Source: Octopus vulgaris
Lineage: Eukaryota
Reading direction: 5' to 3'
Assembly (NCBI GenBank): GCA_951406725.2
Contig: OX597826.1
Location: 81,592,001 to 81,656,000, forward strand
DNA: 64,000 bases
The notes beneath the pieces are model-generated. The model searched no databases, was not told the DNA's origin, and saw nothing but the letters and a program-made list of their open reading frames with translations. The position numbers and the translations under genes were made by a program. The first letter of the stretch is position 1. Each line of letters opens with the position of its first letter. Positions 1,119-56,025 of this stretch are shown here, piece after piece.

Positions 1119-1160
<42 letters not shown>

Positions 1161-2010
1161 TACAGATATATATATATACATGCAGATATAAATATATATA
1201 TATAAACGTATACATACAGATATATATCAATTTATACATACATACAGATATATATAAATATATATATATACATGCATATATATATAAATATATATATATA
1301 CGTGCATATATATATAAATATATATATATACGTGCATATATATATAAATATATATATATACGTGCATATATATATAAATATATATATATACATGCATATA
1401 TATATAAATATATATATATACATGCATATATATATAAATATATATATATACATGCATATATATATAATTATATATATATACATGCATATATATATAAATA
1501 TATATATACATGCATATATATATAAAATATATATATATACATGCATATATATATAATTATATATATATACATACATATATATATAAAATATATATATACA
1601 TACATATATATATATAAATATATATATATACATACATATATATATAAATATATATATATACATACATATATATATATAATATATATATATATACATATAT
1701 ATATAAATATATATATATACATATTTATATAAATATATATACATATATATATACATATTTATATAAATATATATACATATATATATAAATATATATACAT
1801 ATATATATAATATATATATATATACATATATATATAAATATATATATATACATATATATATAAATATATATATATATACACATATATATAAATATATATA
1901 TATACATATATATATAAATATATATATATACACATATATATATATATATATATATATAATAAATATATAAATATATATATATACATATATATATAAATAT
2001 ATATATATAC

Positions 2011-2072
<62 letters not shown>

Positions 2073-2119
2073 CATATATATATATACATATATATAAATA
2101 TACATATATATAAATATAC

Positions 2120-2188
<69 letters not shown>

Positions 2189-2391
2189 AATATACATATA
2201 TATTTATATATACATATAAATATACATATATATATAAATATACATATAAATATACATATATATATAAATATACATATATATACATATATATATATATATA
2301 CATATATATACACATATATATATATATATACATATATATACATATATATATATACATATATATATACATATATATATACATACATATATAT

Positions 2392-2480
<89 letters not shown>

Positions 2481-2577
2481 CATATATATACATATACATA
2501 TATATACATATACATATATATACATATACATATATATATATATACATATATATACATATACATATATATACATATAC

Positions 2578-2626
<49 letters not shown>

Positions 2627-2775
2627 TATACATATCTATACATATACATATATATATACATATATATACATATATATATATATATACACATACTGCTATA
2701 TACATATATATATAATTTTTTCGTAATGAGATAAAAAAACCAAGGCTGTATAGATTTTAGAACATTTAAAAATAG

Positions 2776-2823
2776 GTCTTACGGCTGTTTCTAGGATATT
2801 TAATATATCCCTTCAGCGGAGAA
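2776..2823 (-). ncRNA. Hammerhead-like motif, copy 3 (degenerate)
   Basis: UUCU-CCGCUGA-AGGGAUAU..AUAUCCU-A-GAAACAGCCGUA/AGAC. Core A6 is mutated and there is one stem I mismatch. Confidence 0.4.
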
Positions 2824-3065
2824 GGTGTGAGATTTTTAAAAATATGAGAAAATAAAAATGAAAAAGAGGAATAATGAAGAGAAAGAGAGAAAAAAAAGAA
2901 AACAGAGACAAAGAAAATTTTAGGGAAATGAAAATAAGAAATAAGTCGAAAGTTTTACCGGTGAGTTTGTTAAATTATAAGGCGCAAAAAAATGATACTC
3001 CCCAGACACAACGAATGTGCAGAAATATATATAAATATATATATGACTCTCCCCAGACACAGGAG

Positions 3066-7289
<4,224 letters not shown>

Positions 7290-8510
7290 CTTTGATACTT
7301 TGATAGGTTTCGGCCATTATTGCCCCAGGCCATGTCTAACTTAATAGCACCATCTGGTGAAGTCTTTCAAGTCAGAATTTGGGCACTATGGCCCACTCAA
7401 GTAGAGAGTTATTGTTTACAGAGACATATCCGGGTGTAGGGGGTTTATCCGGGATTTCTTGAAGGAATCTGTCCAAAGACTTCTTGAACCCTATAGGGTC
7501 AGTTTCTGTCTTAATGTGTTTTGGTGTAATGTTAAAGAGAGCGGGGCCAATTGAGGTGAAATAATTGTGCCGTATTGTTGTTATGAGATGAGAGTGCGAT
7601 TTTTGTTTTGGGCGGATGGCACGGGGCCCAAGCCTTGGATGTACCTTAAAGGTGATGCCAACATCATTTGGGCAATGCTGATGGAATATTTTCCACATCA
7701 TGCAGATGATGTAGCGCTCACGACGACGTTGGAGAGAATAGAGTTTTAGCTTTTCTAGTCGACCCCAATAGTCGAGGCCTGTCATGCCATCTATCTTTTT
7801 TGTGATTGCCCTTTGAGGTGCTTCGACTTTTATGATACCTTGTATTGTGTGGGGAGACCACAGTGGACAACAGTATTCAAGGTGGGGTCAGGCAAAAGTG
7901 GAGAAGAGAAGGATAATGGTGTGGATATCTCTCGACTGGAAAGTTCTGAGAATCCAGGAACACATTCTGCGGGCCATGTCAACTTTGGTGTTTATATGAG
8001 TGGCCCAGCTTACGTTGTTGTCCACAATTACTCCCAAGTCTCTGATGTTGTTGGACGCCGCGAGAGTTTCACCTGAAGGAAGGGAGTATGGGAGTTTCAG
8101 GGCATCCTCTTTTCCAAAGTGGATTAGCTCAAATTTATCCTCGTTCAGCAGCATATTGTTTTTTTCTGCCCATTGGATAACAGCCAGTAGATCTGACTGA
8201 AGGCATGTCCGGTCACTCGCCTCATTTATGACCTTCTGTAGCTTGGAGTCATCTGCAAAGATTTTTATGTTGCTGTGCTTGATGATGTCATTAATGTAAA
8301 TGATGAAAAGAAGTGGGCCCAGCACAGTGCCTTGCGGAACGCCACTACTGACTTTGGCTGGGCTTGATTTTACCCCTTCAACTACAACATGTTGAGATCT
8401 GTCTGTCAGGAAACACTTAATCCATTTCAGTAACTTTCCAGAGACACCAATGTTGGATAGTTTTTTCAATAGGATCTTGTGATCGACCCTGTCGAAGGCC
8501 TTACTGAAAT
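7290..8510 (-). mobile_element. CR1/L2-group LINE, 3' part (RT C-terminus + 3' UTR), one in-frame stop
   Basis: One reading frame: FSKAFDRVDH..GVPQGTVLGPLLFIIYIND..FADDSK..DLGV..FA*PHLEYCCPLWSP..LYSLQRRRERY. The TGA at 7888 is probably a CGA decay. The 3' UTR has a hairpin and an (ATCAAAGT)2 tail running into (TA)n. Cut off by the assembly gap. Confidence 0.9.
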
Positions 8511-8610
8511 NNNNNNNNNNNNNNNNNNNNNNNNNNNNNNNNNNNNNNNNNNNNNNNNNNNNNNNNNNNNNNNNNNNNNNNNNNNNNNNNNNNNNNNNNN
8601 NNNNNNNNNN
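8511..8610. other. Assembly gap (100 N)
   Basis: Run of N. Confidence 1.
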
Positions 8611-9012
8611 GAATTTGTTGGTGAGATCCAGACCACGATTGACAACGATCTCTCCAAGACATCGCCTGGGACATGGGAGTGTCTGAGTTTCTTATCAAGC
8701 AGGTAGCACATGAAGACATTCGGTATTCCTCATACATGATGAAAAAGGGGTCAATTTTTATCCCAAACCACCAAGGACAAGAGGAAAGACCGAGCTACGC
8801 AGCTTTTGAACAAACTCAAGCATCCCCTCCAACCGAACATGCTGTGGTTTTCCTCAGATGAGAAAAATTTCTGCAAGGATCAAATGGTGAACACAGAGAA
8901 CAACTGTTGGCTGGCCGTGTCCCCAAAACATGTACCAAGAGTAATAAAAATCAAACATCTAGTCAACATCATGGTGTTTGGAGTGATCATTCACCTTCCT
9001 ACACGGCCTTAG
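8611..9012 (+). mobile_element. Tc1/mariner-superfamily transposase fragment (frameshifted)
   Basis: MGVSEFLIKQVAHEDIRY.. followed by LNKLKHP..WFSSDEKNF..NxxNNCWLA..IMVFGVI (first catalytic D region). Confidence 0.75.
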
Positions 9013-13784: not shown

Positions 13785-14300
13785 CTAGAAATAGAAGACA
13801 AATCCTTCTACAATCACACATCATGAAGGAAATAGTGGATTTTGTAGTCTGAAATGTTTTTGAGTAAAAGTTTGCTCAACTCTTGCTGAACCGAAAACTA
13901 AACAGGGATCATCTGCCCTATCAAAATAACAGCCAAATCTCTCTCACAATATACTCTACCATCATGTTTAAGGTAGGACATACCTGAGAATATAAACCCA
14001 CCAGTAGAGGATTAAGATTCGGTGAAATTATAGATATATAAAACAAAAGGTGAGGATTCAAGTGAAACAGGCCCTTAAATGGTAAGGCACTGGGTCAGGT
14101 CAAAATTAAAATGCTTGCACAACTAAGACTGACGAATACATATGCGGGTAGCGAAGTAGAGGCAGAAAGGTATTCAGGTTATGTATACGATTAATTCAAC
14201 CCGACTGAGTATATCACTGGCCCTTGCGCTAATCAAGAAACACATACCATATTAAATATATGGTTCCGAGAAGTGTGAATTATAAATAAATAACAATAGG

Positions 14301-14644
14301 TAGATAATGTGTCAATTCACTACAGATGTTTCCAACGAATTTTTAATTGATTAAGGGAAACATTAAGTCATTAGAAAAAAATGTTTTTATCAGCTGAATA
14401 CATGAGCCACACAATTTGGAAACGTTCAAAAACCAACGGCACATGTACCTTCATGATTCTAAACAAGCCTTGCTGGTCATAGAAAAAAAGGCTTGTAGAA
14501 TGATGCCGTTGGTTTTTGAATGTTTCTAAATGTTGTGGTTCATGTATTTAGCTGATGAAAACGGTTTTTTCTAATGATGTAATCCTTCCATTAATCGATT
14601 AAAAATTTGTTGGAAACAGGTGTAGTAAATTGACACATTATCTA
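14301..14644. repeat. Fold-back element (about 140 bp inverted arms) carrying hammerhead-like motifs
   Basis: Arms 14301-14441 and 14504-14644 are reverse complements, with an inner hairpin at about 14456-14501. Confidence 0.9.
14546..14630 (+). ncRNA. Hammerhead-like motif with long stem II (mirror copy 14315-14399 on minus)
   Basis: AUUUAG-CUGAUGA-aacgguuuuu...aaaaauuuguug-GAAA-CAGGUG-UA/GUAAAU. Stem I covaries between the arms (AUUUA/UAAAU vs AUUCA/UGAAU). Confidence 0.5.
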
Positions 14645-14975
14645 TGTGTTGTTTTATATATGTACGTACGTACATACATACATACATACATGAAACACGC
14701 AATGAGTCGAAACAGGGGCGGCTGAAGAAGGGCAATGTTCCTTGTGTTGTGTCTTGTACTGTTTTTTTTGTTGTTTGAAAAAGTCCGTTTCCATGTTTTT
14801 GTTTTTATGTTTTCGTTTCTCATTGTGTTCTACGTTTTTTTGGTGTCCTGTACCCATATATGCGTGTATATATACATATAGATGTAGGTACGTACATATA
14901 TGTATGTATGCATGTGTTTTATTTATTAATTTGTTATTATATGATCGAACGTCACGCATCCACTTCCAAGTAAGT

Positions 14976-18649: not shown

Positions 18650-19040
18650 TTGGGTTTTGGGGTATCACTACCTTCAATGTGTATCCCCTATTTGTACAGG
18701 GGATGTTTCATATATGACGACGTACTCTTGAATTTGTCTGAGTGTTGGGTCCTTTGGGTGCTTGGATAAAATGTGGATGACAAGCTGACTCTGTGTGCCT
18801 TCATGTTGGTCTTTGGTTGTTGGTAGAGTATGGAAGACTGTTTTGTTTTTGTCATATTGACTCAAATTTTCATTTAATCTCTCTGCAATCCTTCTAGATG
18901 TCTCACCAATGTATGTCATGTTCTTGTCTTCCTTCAGAGCTTTCCTAAATTTTTGGGCTAGTTCTCCATGGGCTGTGGCCTCTATAAATGTCACTCCTTG
19001 ATATTTGATGGTCTTGTACCATGTGTTCACCCGGTTTGCT
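18650..19040 (-). mobile_element. Penelope-like element fragment: linker + GIY-YIG endonuclease (internally deleted)
   Basis: TWYK..FIEAT..L..YIGETSRRIAERLNE..DPTLRQIQE (ORF 18674-19030). Confidence 0.75.
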
Positions 19041-19044
19041 TTGT

Positions 19045-19345
19045 CACGAACTCTGTATCCTATTCAAGTCCTTGATACTGAACTTTAGTCAGAGACTGTG
19101 AACAACAAAGTGCAGCTCTTCCATTCCTATTACATAAAACCCAAAGCTTCTAAGTGTGTTGTTCACAAGAAGCCAGCTTTGCCACACAACATGAAAATCA
19201 AAACATACCGATAGCAGACTTAGACTAATGAACAACCTGTCCCCACTATGCAAACCCTATGAAACAAAAGAAACGTGTACAGAACTTCGTGCAGCGCATA
19301 CAATTCTCTGGATATGATCAGAAAGACAGGATTTGGGTATTCAGG
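19045..19345 (+). mobile_element. Penelope-like RT thumb fragment, inverted relative to the adjacent endonuclease piece
   Basis: PIQVLD..LFHSYYIKPKASKCVVHKKPALP..RLMNNLSP / VQNFVQRIQFSGYDQKDR. Confidence 0.65.
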
Positions 19346-19455
19346 GGAACTAGAAAGCAGTTAGCATTATATGTAATGAAGCCAGTGGCGCCTGCCCTAG
19401 ATATAGAAGACTAGAATAGGATACAGTGAGTATACTCTCTCTCTCCCCCCCCCCC

Positions 19456-48290: not shown

Positions 48291-48494
48291 ATTGCTCGAC
48301 ATTTTAAAACTGATGTAATACTTACTGTGTTTAATAAAAGGAAGTAGCATGAAACAATTGTACTACTCTACCTTGGATATCCTTGTTGCTTATTTTGATT
48401 ATAATCACCCCGTTTGATTTATATGGATAACACGATACGAAATGCTGGTGCCTTTAACTTAAGTACCATATTCATCTGAATCTAAATTTTGCCG

Positions 48495-48497
<3 letters not shown>
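48291..48497 (+). mobile_element. Single-arm copy of the 54665-54992 element (hammerhead-like)
   Basis: attgctcgacattttaaaaCTGATGTaatactt..catGAAACAATTGTActactc..ttcatctgaatctaaattttg, flanked by TA/CATA repeats. Confidence 0.8.
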
Positions 48498-49541: not shown

Positions 49542-49623
49542 ATACGATATAGTGTATATTTAAACACATAGAGAATCCACTTACAGGGATTCTCTATATG
49601 TTTAAATATACACTATATCGTAT
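49542..49623. repeat. 37-bp near-perfect inverted repeat with 8-nt loop
   Basis: atacgatatagtgtatatttaaacacatagagaatcc / ggattctctatatgtttaaatatacactatatcgtat (one mismatch). Confidence 0.9.
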
Positions 49624-50305: not shown

Positions 50306-51049
50306 GAGACATGCCCACACACCTTTATGTATTTTGTTTTGGCTGAGTCAGTCTGTTGCTACTCTGAGTTTCGTTCGTGGGTGCACAGGGTCTTTAGGCA
50401 AATTACGAGAGAAGAAATGATGGAATTTACATGAATATATATATAGAATTTCTGTCATATGGTAAAATGATGGAGGGGAACTGAGATGCCTCAAAACAAT
50501 ATATATAACCATAAAATTATGCTGTATGGCATTGTAAAATAAAAGGGAATAAAACTTGAGGATGTATCAGCCTCCATATGCACTCTTCTTATAATTATTG
50601 CAAATATACACTCCATATAATGCTACCATCCTCAGAAATGCACACAGAATTACCCATCGGAGGAATTTACAGCATGAGTGACAACACCTAGAAGTCATGG
50701 ACGTTAAATACTAATCGATGCAGTTAGCTATAACCTGGGACATGATTGAGAGCCACCACGACATCCGTCTGGATAATATATCCCTCTAACCCCCCCCCCC
50801 CCCACACACAGATGCCGAATATGCATCTGTTGGAAAAGATGTTGAAATTAAAAGTCAAATCTCTTTGATATCATACCCTAAAATCTAAAAACAGAGACAC
50901 TAATTCTAGGTACACCATATTTAAGCCCCTTTCCACATAGACATGCTGGTCCAGGGTTGTTTTGTGGTTACTAAGCAACACAAATGTTTCTGGCAAATGG
51001 TCTAAGTCCACCTCCACATGAGAAGCATAAGCATAAACAATAATAGTTT

Positions 51050-52958: not shown

Positions 52959-53000
52959 AGCAGATGAGATCCAGAGGTGCTCAATACAGAAAATACTTTA

Positions 53001-53220
53001 AGGTGGCGAAGTGGTAGAATCATTAACACGCCAGGCAAAAGGCTTTGCGGTATTTCGTCTGTTTTCATGTTCTGAGTTCAGATTCTCCACCGAGGTCGAC
53101 TTCGCCTTTCATCCTTTTGCGGTCGATAAAATAAGTACGAGCTAAGCACTAGCATCAACGTAATCGACTAGCTCGACTAGTTCAGAATTGCTGGTCTTGT
53201 GCCAAAATTTGAAACCAATA
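53001..53220 (+). mobile_element. SINE family 2 copy
   Basis: ggtatttcgtc..gaggtcgacttcgcctttcatcc..gtcgataaaataagtac. Confidence 0.75.
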
Positions 53221-53346
53221 TAGAAAACACTTGGCGCTAGATATACAAAATATATACATGTAAATAGAGAGAAAACAAAGACTGAAAGTATTCAAGCGAT
53301 GAAGTTTCATGTATAAAATTAAGGGGAGAAGGTGAGGTATTAGAAG

Positions 53347-53474
53347 CCCGACAGCTGTTTCTGGGGGCTCGGAATTACCTCATAATGTTGGTAGGTGTAG
53401 TTCGCATAAAGGTAAAGATATGCAGCCAGTAGTGGAAGCATATAAACATTGAGTCCAACCTCCGTTTTCAAGGT
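53347..53474 (-). ncRNA. Hammerhead-like motif, U3-A8 core, long stem II
   Basis: ACC-UUGAAAA-C-GGAGGUUGG...CCGAGCCCCC-A-GAAA-CAGCUG-UC/GGG. It is preceded on the minus strand by a pyrimidine tract, as in the 1-3065 units. Confidence 0.4.
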
Positions 53475-53733
53475 GGGGGGATATCTAACGTTTAAATCAT
53501 ACTGCAGAGAAATTTAAAGGTAGAAAGGATGAAGAGGAAGGTCAACAGAAGTGGAGGAAGGGAGTAGGCGGCTCGAGATGTAGTTGTGGGGAGTGTTGAA
53601 GCAAGGAGAGTCGGGAGATGAGTGGGAAAGGGTGGGATGGATAGTATTTTGAAGGGTGGTCTTTATTGTTGGGTTTCATAGCAGATGTTAATAGTTGGGG
53701 ATGGTGCCACTAAAGAACTGCGAAAGGGAAATT

Positions 53734-53767
<34 letters not shown>

Positions 53768-53830
53768 GGAGTAAACACATAAATGTGAAACAAGGTGGAA
53801 AAAAGAGTACTCAATACCAGTGGTAGAGTA

Positions 53831-54006
53831 ATATGCTTTATTTAAAGCAGCAGAAAATTCAACAAAACCTGTTACTCTGAGTTTCACGTTCCCGTTCGTC
53901 GGACAGTTTTTGCTAGAATTCTAGCAAAACTGTTCGACGAACGGGAACGTGAAACTCAGAGTAACAGCTTTTGTTGAATTTTCTGCTGCTTTAAACAAAG
54001 TGTATA
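53831..54006. repeat. Near-perfect palindrome centred on GAATTC (53916-53921) containing two divergent hammerheads
   Basis: Arms of about 88 bp with no spacer. The element extends left to about 53765 and is flanked by (TA)n on both sides. Confidence 0.92.
53869..53906 (-). ncRNA. Minimal type I hammerhead (U4C variant); mirror copy 53930-53967 on plus has C3U
   Basis: CUGU-CCGACGA-ACG(ggaa)CGU-GAAA-CUCAGAG-UA/ACAG. All three stems pair, and stem II has a GNRA loop. Confidence 0.75.
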
Positions 54007-54018
54007 TATATATATATA

Positions 54019-54496
54019 TATATAGTTTGTATCCAGTTAAAAGAAAAAAAAGCGAAGAAAGTTAAGGAAGTTGACAATTATTTATTATTACCAAATTGGT
54101 CATCTTCGCTTCTTGTAGCCGTTTTAATTAATACTCAATAATTTAATTACAAATTTGTACATTAAGTTTGCATTTGTGTGACATGAGTATAATTTCATCA
54201 GAGGAAAAAATAAGATGTACGTTGGGACGTTAGTTGTGGACCTGTCAATTCATTTCAGCAGAAACGGTCTGAATTGACAGGTCCGCATATAACCTCCAAA
54301 TGTACATCTTTTTTCCCCTCTGATGAAATTATACTCATGTCACATAAATGCAAATTTAATGTAGAAATTTGTAATTAAATTATTAAGTATTAATTGAAAC
54401 GGCTATAAGAAGCGAAAATGGCCAATTTATTAATAATAAATAATTGTCAACTTCATTAACTTTCTTTTCTTCTTTTAACTGGATATAAACTATATA
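54019..54496. repeat. Fold-back element (about 230 bp arms, 17-nt loop) with hammerhead-like motifs
   Basis: Arms 54019-54252 and 54270-54496. Confidence 0.92.
54316..54411 (+). ncRNA. Hammerhead-like motif with long stem II
   Basis: CU-CUGAUGA-AAUUAUACUCA...UAAGUAUUAAUU-GAAA-CGGCUA-UA/AG. Canonical core with weak stems I and III. Confidence 0.5.
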
Positions 54497-54612
54497 CTGA
54501 ATATATACCTATCGTTTTAAGGGAATTTCATTCCCCAGCAATACTAGGTATTGACCCAGTACTTACTTTGATGCAACCAGCCCTTCACGAGGTTGACATA
54601 GCCTCTAATTAA

Positions 54613-54664
<52 letters not shown>

Positions 54665-54665
<1 letters not shown>

Positions 54666-54992
54666 TTCAGCAAAATTTAGATTCAGATGAATATGGTACT
54701 TAAGTTAAAGGCACTAGAATTTTGTATGGAATTATCCATATAAAGCAAATGGGGTGATTATAACCAAAATAAGCAACAAAGATATCCAAGGTAGAGTAGT
54801 ACAATTGTTTCATGCTACTTCATTTTATTAAACCCTGTAAGTATTACATCAGTTTTAAAATGTCGAGCAATCTATGTGGCTGAAGATTGCTCGACATTTT
54901 AAAACTGATGTAATACTTACAGTGTTTAATAAAATGAAGCAGCATGAAACAATTGTACTACTCTACCTTGGATATCTTTGTTGCTTATTTTG
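54665..54992. mobile_element. Partial fold-back element (arms 54765-54873 / 54884-54992) in (TA)n
   Basis: Full copy on minus plus an inverted truncated copy. Carries CTGATGT...GAAACAATTGTA. Same family as 48291. Confidence 0.85.
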
Positions 54993-55016
54993 TTTATATA
55001 TATATATATATATATA

Positions 55017-55523
55017 TCACATCGGGGTCACCAGTGTTGCGAGGTTGGATGTAACGTGTTCGAAGGTAATAATGTCACAATATAACGTGGAATAGAGTGT
55101 ATTTAGAAATGAAGGCAATTTGTTAATTATACAGAGCAATTTTATTTGAATTGTTGACAAGTGCTGAGCAAAGTGGGCGAATGAATGTAGGAGTCAGAGA
55201 ATAGCGTTGTAAACTTCTAAATTACGCAAGTCGTTTAGAAGTTTGCAGTGCAAAGGATGTAAGAAATACAAACAGGCCATAACCGGGGTGGTAGGAAGGC
55301 TGGTATGAAATGTCAAGATCTGTCCGCTGCTGGTTGTGGAGCTCTGATCGCTGACGGTTGTGGCGTCGGGGTCTTCTACTGACTGAATACAAAAAGGCAC
55401 GCTCCTGCTGGGCAGATGACTGCTGCTTTTATAGGGACACGACCAGCTCTGGTTGGCTACAGTTGCCAAAACACAATTGTGCCAATACCTGACCTTCAAA
55501 TACAGCTACCTCGACTCACTAAA
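55017..55523 (-). mobile_element. LTR (Gypsy-like) with primer-binding site, internal region lost
   Basis: Minus strand: T(T)TAGTGAG start, TATAAAA at about 55430, AATAAA at 55141-55146, ..GCAACA end at 55035, then TGGTGACCCCGATGTGA PBS. Confidence 0.75.
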
Positions 55524-55538
55524 TATATATAAATAACG

Positions 55539-55835
55539 ACACAAGAAATTTGAAATATTTTGGTATTATCTATTCATCATTACACGTGTTTCATTTGCTA
55601 ATAGATATAATTTATACATGTAAGATAGACATGCAAGGGATTTCCTGTTAGACAGAGAAGTTGAATAATATTCAAATCAAATAATACCAGTCTTATTTAA
55701 TTTTTCTATCCGAAAAATTTCTAATAGCAAATCCCTTATATGCTTATCTTCCATGTAAAACTTAGCAATATCTATTAGTAAATGAAACACGTGTAATGGT
55801 GGATAAATAATACCAAAATCCTAAATTTCTTGTGT
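55539..55835. repeat. Older fold-back element (arms about 55539-55652 / 55720-55835)
   Basis: Inverted arms, each carrying GAAA-CACGTG-TA (hammerhead 3' half with palindromic stem III). The 5' core is decayed. Confidence 0.8.
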
Positions 55836-56025
55836 TTATATACAATAATTTTGCAAATAGTATTTGCATAATTCTCAGAATTAATAATATATAATTTGAA
55901 CTGATATAGAGCAACAGCTGGGACGACATATTGAATTTACCCTAACTACCTACATCATAGGTGTATGTGTGTATGTGTATTTGCATGCGTGTATGTATGT
56001 ATGTATGTATGTATGTATGTATGTA

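Follow-up and report, generated by a model that had tools for sequence, protein, structure and literature searches.

Five unrelated families of short repeats, E1 to E5, are stacked between TA runs at one locus of the Octopus vulgaris window analysed in this study (the whole stretch of 64,000 nt on contig OX597826.1), with unequal arms lying head to head. Each is probably the product of a separate event in which a Penelope-like enzyme (reverse transcriptase plus GIY-YIG) copied the 3' end of an RNA into the same TA microsatellite. The geometry, the unequal arms, the short TA runs at the short ends, the varying centres and the repeat status are all observed directly. The locus itself is likely to be ordinary debris of a known kind, the remains of Penelope-type insertions. 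Such palindromes are easily misfiled as MITEs or microRNA hairpins. Where copies are plentiful and combine two outer ends with variable centres, they would allow the second-strand and inversion steps of Penelope insertion to be studied in natural material. The five families may perhaps be undescribed in the literature; a search by term of the PMC8557442 supplement, in which two octopus Naiads are present, found none of four motifs of the cluster.

Layout of the cluster and its elements

The window is microsatellite-rich animal DNA. Inverted repeats were confirmed at 53831-54005 (E2), 54009-54507 (E3), 54759-54998 (E4) and 55539-55835 (E5), with arm-to-arm divergences of 3.7%, 9.3%, 2.6% and 13.4%, respectively. 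Perfect TA runs were located at 53736-53765 ((TA)15), at 54003-54024 between E2 and E3 ((TA)11), at 54616-54663 ((TA)24) and at 54995-55017 ((TA)11), and a degenerate one at about 55520-55534. The initial annotation, which described four fold-backs packed together with TA runs between most elements, is thus borne out. It had also held that the families differ in sequence and that their motifs point outward from the hairpin centre; nhmmer found no mutual similarity among E1-E5, and the ribozyme motifs run 5' to 3' outward from every fold-back centre. Six non-microsatellite fold-backs were found in the window, four with centres inside 1.8 kb, a clustering equalled in 328 of 200,000 random placements (a post hoc test).

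The cluster DNA is real and no assembly artefact, since near-identical contigs at single-copy depth were found in all four public runs for E1 and for the LTR-like stretch described below, and in all four for parts of E5 (32 pieces listed). One of these runs possibly derives from the source sample itself, and no single contig in the four spans the whole cluster. A Pfam scan of 36 of the 178 listed open reading frames gave no match inside the cluster, and ARAGORN found no tRNA gene. Scans for the exact motifs returned no loci in metagenome contigs and none in prokaryote genomes, and blastn against phages was likewise empty.

E1 (53241-53735, minus strand) is a single arm in which contig depth drops from 11,535 to about 200 toward the 5' side. 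Its low-copy stretch 53474-53735 is only possibly part of the element and could be the displaced leader of the LTR described below. The long arm of E2 (53766-53918, minus) ends in a 65-nt tail (53766-53830) and carries a predicted minimal type I hammerhead, in which the core, a U4C variant, is at 53902 and the predicted cleavage site at 53873. Its short arm (53919-54003, plus), in which the core has an extra C3U change, stops at the recurrent short end of the family. The E2 centre is a perfect palindrome without a spacer, and depth at the centre of this copy is 2,624 as against 1.69 million on the arm. Both arms carry a letter at 53924 that is absent from most of the 18 contigs covering it.

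The short arm of E3 (54019-54262, minus) has a perfect CUGAUGA core at 54201, and its long arm (54263-54615, plus) has a core at 54320, a 69-nt helix II region and a tail of about 119 nt (54497-54615). In E4 the long arm (54664-54873, minus) is cut within the catalytic core and bears a 95-nt tail at 54664-54758. The complete motif lies in the short arm (54874-54998, plus), with a CUGAAGA core at 54880, a 59-nt helix II and a predicted cleavage site at 54957. The left arm of E5 (55535-55652, minus) retains only the 3' half of the motif and is cut inside helix II, followed by a spacer and right arm (55653-55840, plus) with a decayed core at 55710; a tail past 55840 is possible, although the depth bins do not establish one. 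The fold-back positions given by the initial annotation stand, and its outer boundaries are to be extended: E1 reaches about 53241, E2 extends left to 53766 and E3 right to about 54615, while the E4 core is found only in the right arm.

Predicted hammerhead motifs

Rfam recognised no hammerhead, with no matches at the gathering threshold and none of this type among the 43 matches at E<=10; its matches below threshold include miRNA hits. The 3' half of the motif (GAAA, a self-complementary helix III and UH) is present in four of the five elements, E1, E2, E4 and E5, compared with a shuffle mean of 0.32, and a count of four was reached in 3 of 2000 shuffles. A relaxed type I hammerhead descriptor, written after the motifs had been seen, combined a CUGANGA core (or the U3-A8 variant), GAAA, UH and helices I, II and III. 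It was matched by both arms of E2 and by the right arms of E4 and E5, with one core deviation in the E2 left arm, none in E4 and two in E5. The proposal of five hammerhead-type elements is partly confirmed: three of the five (E2, E4 and E5) fit the full descriptor, and the copies of E1 and E3 present here fail it. Matches arose in 0 of 1000 shuffles for E2 and 2 of 1000 for E4 (one core deviation) and in 11 of 1000 for E5 (two deviations), and no joint shuffle out of 1000 reached three elements.

In E1, the helix III half is at 53350-53361 and a putative U3-A8 core at 53465-53471, with only two helix I pairs and a long helix II closing at the core. Both E3 arms combine a perfect core with a broken helix III and with mismatches in helix I, one of them C-A; helices I and III of the long arm are damaged. 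The majority of the E3 family has G at 54405 (A>G, 63 contigs), which restores the helix III pairing and leaves the helix I C-A mismatch, and both E3 arms of this copy share the non-family letter at 54116/54405. When the helix II folds were compared with 300 shuffles each, none was as good for E4, 22 for E1, 51 for E5 and 92-110 for E3, only E4 being clear. Judged by sequence, the predicted hammerheads are good in E2 and E4, probable in E5 and E3 and plausible in E1, and most of the copies here are likely to be inactive.

Two further readings of E4 were considered and rejected. A CTGATG(T) inside its arms cannot serve as the core, as it sits within helix II and the true core is at 54880, and a rewired hammerhead is unnecessary for E4.

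Outside the cluster the descriptor matched at five places, four of them chance-like and only one, at 387, looking real; two copies of a SINE-like repeat give probable chance matches. Within a large TA satellite, a unit bearing a hammerhead with a CCGAUGA core is repeated three times in direct orientation (284-480, 817-1015 and 2716-2892), the third repeat lacking the core. A hammerhead-like motif on the minus strand at 50330-50420 has a helix III as in E2, is otherwise different and has a damaged core. A fold-back at 14260-14660 bears a hammerhead-like motif with a long helix II; its arms are 15% apart, and one of them has a tail of some 20 nt. An 82-nt hairpin with 90% self-complementarity and no assigned motif is found at 49542-49623.

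Arm ends, copies elsewhere and the origin of the insertions

In all three fold-backs where it could be assessed the arms are unequal, with tails of 65 nt on the left of E2, about 119 nt on the right of E3 and 95 nt on the left of E4. At the end of every short arm lies an internal TA run, 4-6 nt in length; the long ends show TA homology of 0-1 nt. By a post hoc count, internal TA runs cover 5% (E2), 10% (E3) and 16% (E4) of the possible junctions, and the E2 arm holds just one such run. From the predicted cleavage site to the short end, the distance is 42 nt in E2, 89 nt in E3, 41 nt in E4 and 40 nt in E5; in the unrelated fold-back at 14.3 kb it is 37-40 nt.

Copies elsewhere in the genome were assessed from contigs, among which 12 of 640 loose ends, 15 of 86 joints and 12 of 23 joints with filler were listed. 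In the rows listed, 41 contigs of one run (agreement 0.95) and four of another reach the recurrent E2 short end at 53831 and pass into TA there. All 12 listed joints with filler (of 23) are distinct left-to-right centre joints, four in E2 and eight in E3; they contain 1-40 letters of filler, and their depths, 41-140 compared with about 47 for single-copy sequence, are about 1-3 times the single-copy value. Four opposite-strand rows and four skips within arms were excluded as probable palindrome mapping effects or plain deletions, long-arm ends were left out of the tally as reads are cut at TA runs, and in one contig mapping all the joints and loose ends listed belong to the neighbouring SINE. 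For E4, no centre joint was found among the same 15 of 86 joints and 12 of 23 joints with filler. The arm-tail junctions were bridged by contigs from other copies in E3 (54496) and by a contig from another copy in E2.

The 5' ends lie near the motif. In E2, 83 contigs leave the family at 53910 into mixed sequence (agreement 0.51); in E3, four of the eight listed joints fall at 54256-54262; and in E4, where the sequence of 64 contigs goes on beyond 54873 to include the core and the strand of helix I, the median 5' end is 21 nt upstream of 54873. Summed depth over single copy, which does not give a copy number, is about 10^4-fold for E2 and E4 and about 10^2-10^3-fold for E1 and E3, E2 and E4 being among the deepest repeats in the public runs mapped. 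A second copy of E4 in the window (48291-48495, plus), amid TA/TACA repeats, is a single long arm without an inverted partner; it differs by 6.4% from the E4 long arm and carries the E4 tail with the same long end. It was also observed that contigs of one run share the E4 tail at 54744-54788 and then diverge, one with a related helix III region. The shared tail with differing continuations suggests a sister family of E4.

The initial annotation had proposed variable inversion breakpoints, a fixed outer end and (TA)n flanks as signs of inverted Penelope-like insertions. Centres do differ among copies of E2 and E3, and the recurrent outer end of E2 has a TA flank; instead of one fixed outer end, each family appears to have two, a long and a short one. 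A head-to-head, inverted and truncated copy with a variable junction was thus found for E2 and E3. One-end tails occur in E2, E3 and E4, with a recurrent short 3' end in E2 and a shared long one in the two E4 copies, and a hammerhead in the terminal repeat was found together with an AT-rich or (TA)n target. For EN+ Penelope-like elements, PMC8557442 describes insertions in which an inverted copy is truncated at its 5' end and tailed on one side, with (TA)n as a preferred target; pLTRs inverted head to head have been described as well (PMC3846280). As far as the available parts of these sources go, the cluster resembles such insertions in its head-to-head ends, one-end tail and (TA)n target, and also in a hammerhead near the 3' end and no readable target duplication, and differs from them in having no open reading frame, no direct pLTR-ORF-pLTR body and five families stacked at one site.

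The motifs likewise resemble the metazoan hammerheads of Penelope-like elements (PMC4209133), for which the part available describes a U3-A8 core, a bulge at helix II and pairs of minimal motifs on opposite strands, separated by 100-700 bp. The similarities are a minimal type I form with short helix I and palindromic helix III, the bulge at the base of helix II, the U3-A8 variant and the opposite-strand pairing over 100-700 bp, whereas the helix II region of 59-103 nt in E1, E3, E4 and E5 contrasts with a 6-8-bp stem there, and the U4C core of E2 differs as well. For Poseidon of Anolis in vitro, the accessible part of PMC11167929 reports that both strands are cut and extended, that two reverse transcription start sites bound the tail and that ribozyme cleavage is not needed. 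Two starts that define a tail and cutting and extension of both AT-rich strands would suit the cluster equally; unlike here, where short ends fall on TA runs and no open reading frame was seen, the Poseidon starts described there lack target homology, are close together and lie inside the ORF.

Under the preferred reading, the endonuclease would cut both strands of (TA)n, and each cut end would prime reverse transcription, the long arm with its tail arising from a distal start and the short arm from a proximal one, 40-90 nt beyond the hammerhead cleavage site. At the proximal start, a TA run of 4-6 nt would pair with the primer. Synthesis of both cDNAs would stop close to the hammerhead, on its 5' side, and the two would be connected at a head-to-head joint containing a few filler or shared bases; TA would persist or re-expand on both sides, keeping the site a target. 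The hammerheads may then be passengers copied from uncleaved RNA. Arm divergences of 2.6-13.4% fit separate insertion events and agree with the earlier suggestion of repeated landing at one TA site. The youngest inserts would be E2 and E4, flanking the older E3, each across a TA run, with E5 older still, an order that assumes arms identical at the start and no conversion. Two of the points that do not sit easily with this explanation, as judged from the portions of the sources available, are these: the starts in PMC11167929 are without target homology while the short ends here show TA homology, and the tails of 65-119 nt exceed the published 30-40 nt.

A trace of this enzyme class is also present within the window. 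A decayed ORF piece of a Penelope-like element at 18677-19410, in a head-to-head inversion with no hammerhead seen adjoining, has its endonuclease part on the minus strand (19063->18677) and its upstream part on the plus strand (19062->~19400). It has no sequence in common with E1-E5 and implies that enzymes of the class have acted in this genome. Elsewhere in the window, a fragment shows 43-55% identity to a Penelope-like protein that bears the label Octopus vulgaris. In the cluster itself, tblastn with 105 proteins gave a best E of 0.022 and linked no ORF. A word-index search with the GIY-YIG remnant as query found nothing, and none of the 43 relatives from phmmer or the 63 from a second search matched the cluster. 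There was also no convincing Met-started frame running off any long arm.

With no ORF tied to any arm and 5' ends near the motif, the templates are equally likely to have been short non-autonomous units or truncated pLTRs. The description of these elements as inverted pLTR-only retro-insertions therefore keeps its inverted Penelope-like layout, while "pLTR-only" is indistinguishable from short non-autonomous units. The chances are evenly balanced that the templates were short ribozyme RNAs, retrozyme-like or SINE-like, mobilised in trans by the same insertion mechanism. This accords with the 5' ends clustering near the motif in E2, E3 and E4, with a summed depth of about 10^4 times single-copy for E2 and E4 (again no copy number) and with the lack of any coding trace in the cluster, but the window holds no tandem unit or wrap-around, a strong hairpin could halt reverse transcription at the same place in a long template, and the 5'-ward tapering of E1 depth is what truncation predicts. 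Animal non-LTR retrozymes (PMC7229834; 10.64898/2026.07.22.740005) are, in the parts of these accounts available, similar in being non-coding type I hammerhead repeats linked to Penelope-like elements, and dissimilar in forming tandem arrays in which every unit, about 300 bp long, has its own hammerhead, E1-E5 being inverted or single and showing no direct repeats at the locus. A different route to the second arm, namely fold-back or self-priming on one nascent DNA or antisense template of the same elements, was raised in the available part of PMC3846280 and is considered rather unlikely here. The perfect spacer-free palindrome of E2 would suit it, as would the rare letter at 53924 and the non-family letter at 54116/54405 shared between arms in E2 and E3, respectively, although shared letters equally fit a single source locus or later conversion between arms. 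Copying by fold-back alone leaves unexplained the short end recurring on an internal TA run in 41 contigs, and the two arms of E4, like those of E5, differ in their 5' starting points, one holding sequence that the other lacks.

More doubtful still is a role for the hammerhead as ruler and clamp instead of cutter, in which two RNAs paired through the palindromic helix III would each be copied from one cut (TA)n strand, with a short TA run some 40 nt beyond the cleavage site as the proximal start. Spacings of 42, 41 and 40 nt in E2, E4 and E5 and of 37-40 nt at 14.3 kb point this way, E3 with 89 nt being the exception, and such pairing would explain the overlap of both arms. In L1 twin priming, by comparison, the arms are not known to overlap. 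Very improbable is that the arms were equal at insertion and that a subsequent deletion, from an internal TA run to the flanking microsatellite, removed one tail. Deletion would account for the TA homology of short ends without special priming, and one contig joins the E4 tail to TA at the same point (54761); on the other hand, exactly one arm is short in all three cases, the two youngest included, and a one-sided tail is a described feature of insertion in the available parts of PMC8557442 and PMC11167929. Least credible of all are MITEs of a TA-targeting DNA transposon, presumably of the Tc1/mariner type, with incidental hammerhead-like motifs. High copy, inverted arms and TA flanks are all consistent with MITEs, target duplications would be unreadable within (TA)n, and Rfam found no ribozyme. 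The final 65-119 nt of the termini are not mutually inverted, however, centres vary in E2 and E3, single-arm copies exist (48.3 kb and E1), and the descriptor was matched in three unrelated families, a number reached in none of the 1000 joint shuffles. Unequal termini, variable centres and single-arm copies together largely refute the MITE reading, as the initial annotation had anticipated; TA flanks alone would not have refuted it.

The LTR fragment and other repeats of the window

The LTR with a primer-binding site, which had also been noted earlier, was found again between E4 and E5. An LTR-like stretch on the minus strand (55518->55035), a low-copy repeat, begins with TG and ends with CA and has termini complementary at 8 of 11 positions. 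One base after it comes an 18-nt primer-binding site (55016-55033, minus), which ends at the TA run and agrees in 17 of 18 letters with the Rfam RSV_PBS consensus, with a model score below the cut-off; the corresponding primer we take to be tRNA-Trp. The 5'-end features of an LTR retrotransposon (TG...CA, inverted termini and an adjacent primer site) are thus present, and the internal region is absent. Plus-strand strong-stop DNA has the form of a complete LTR extended by the primer site and nothing more. The sequence fits either such a strong-stop DNA or an element interrupted or deleted at the AT junction.

Other repeats are common in the window. The interval 1129-8691 holds a 6-kb TA satellite and, after it, a piece of a LINE-type reverse transcriptase (RVT_1, E 1e-16) that continues up to an assembly gap. 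Next to the cluster, at 53000-53221, lies a very abundant SINE-like repeat with similar copies at 20.2, 30.3, 41.8, 44.8, 51.1, 56.1 and 58.6 kb.
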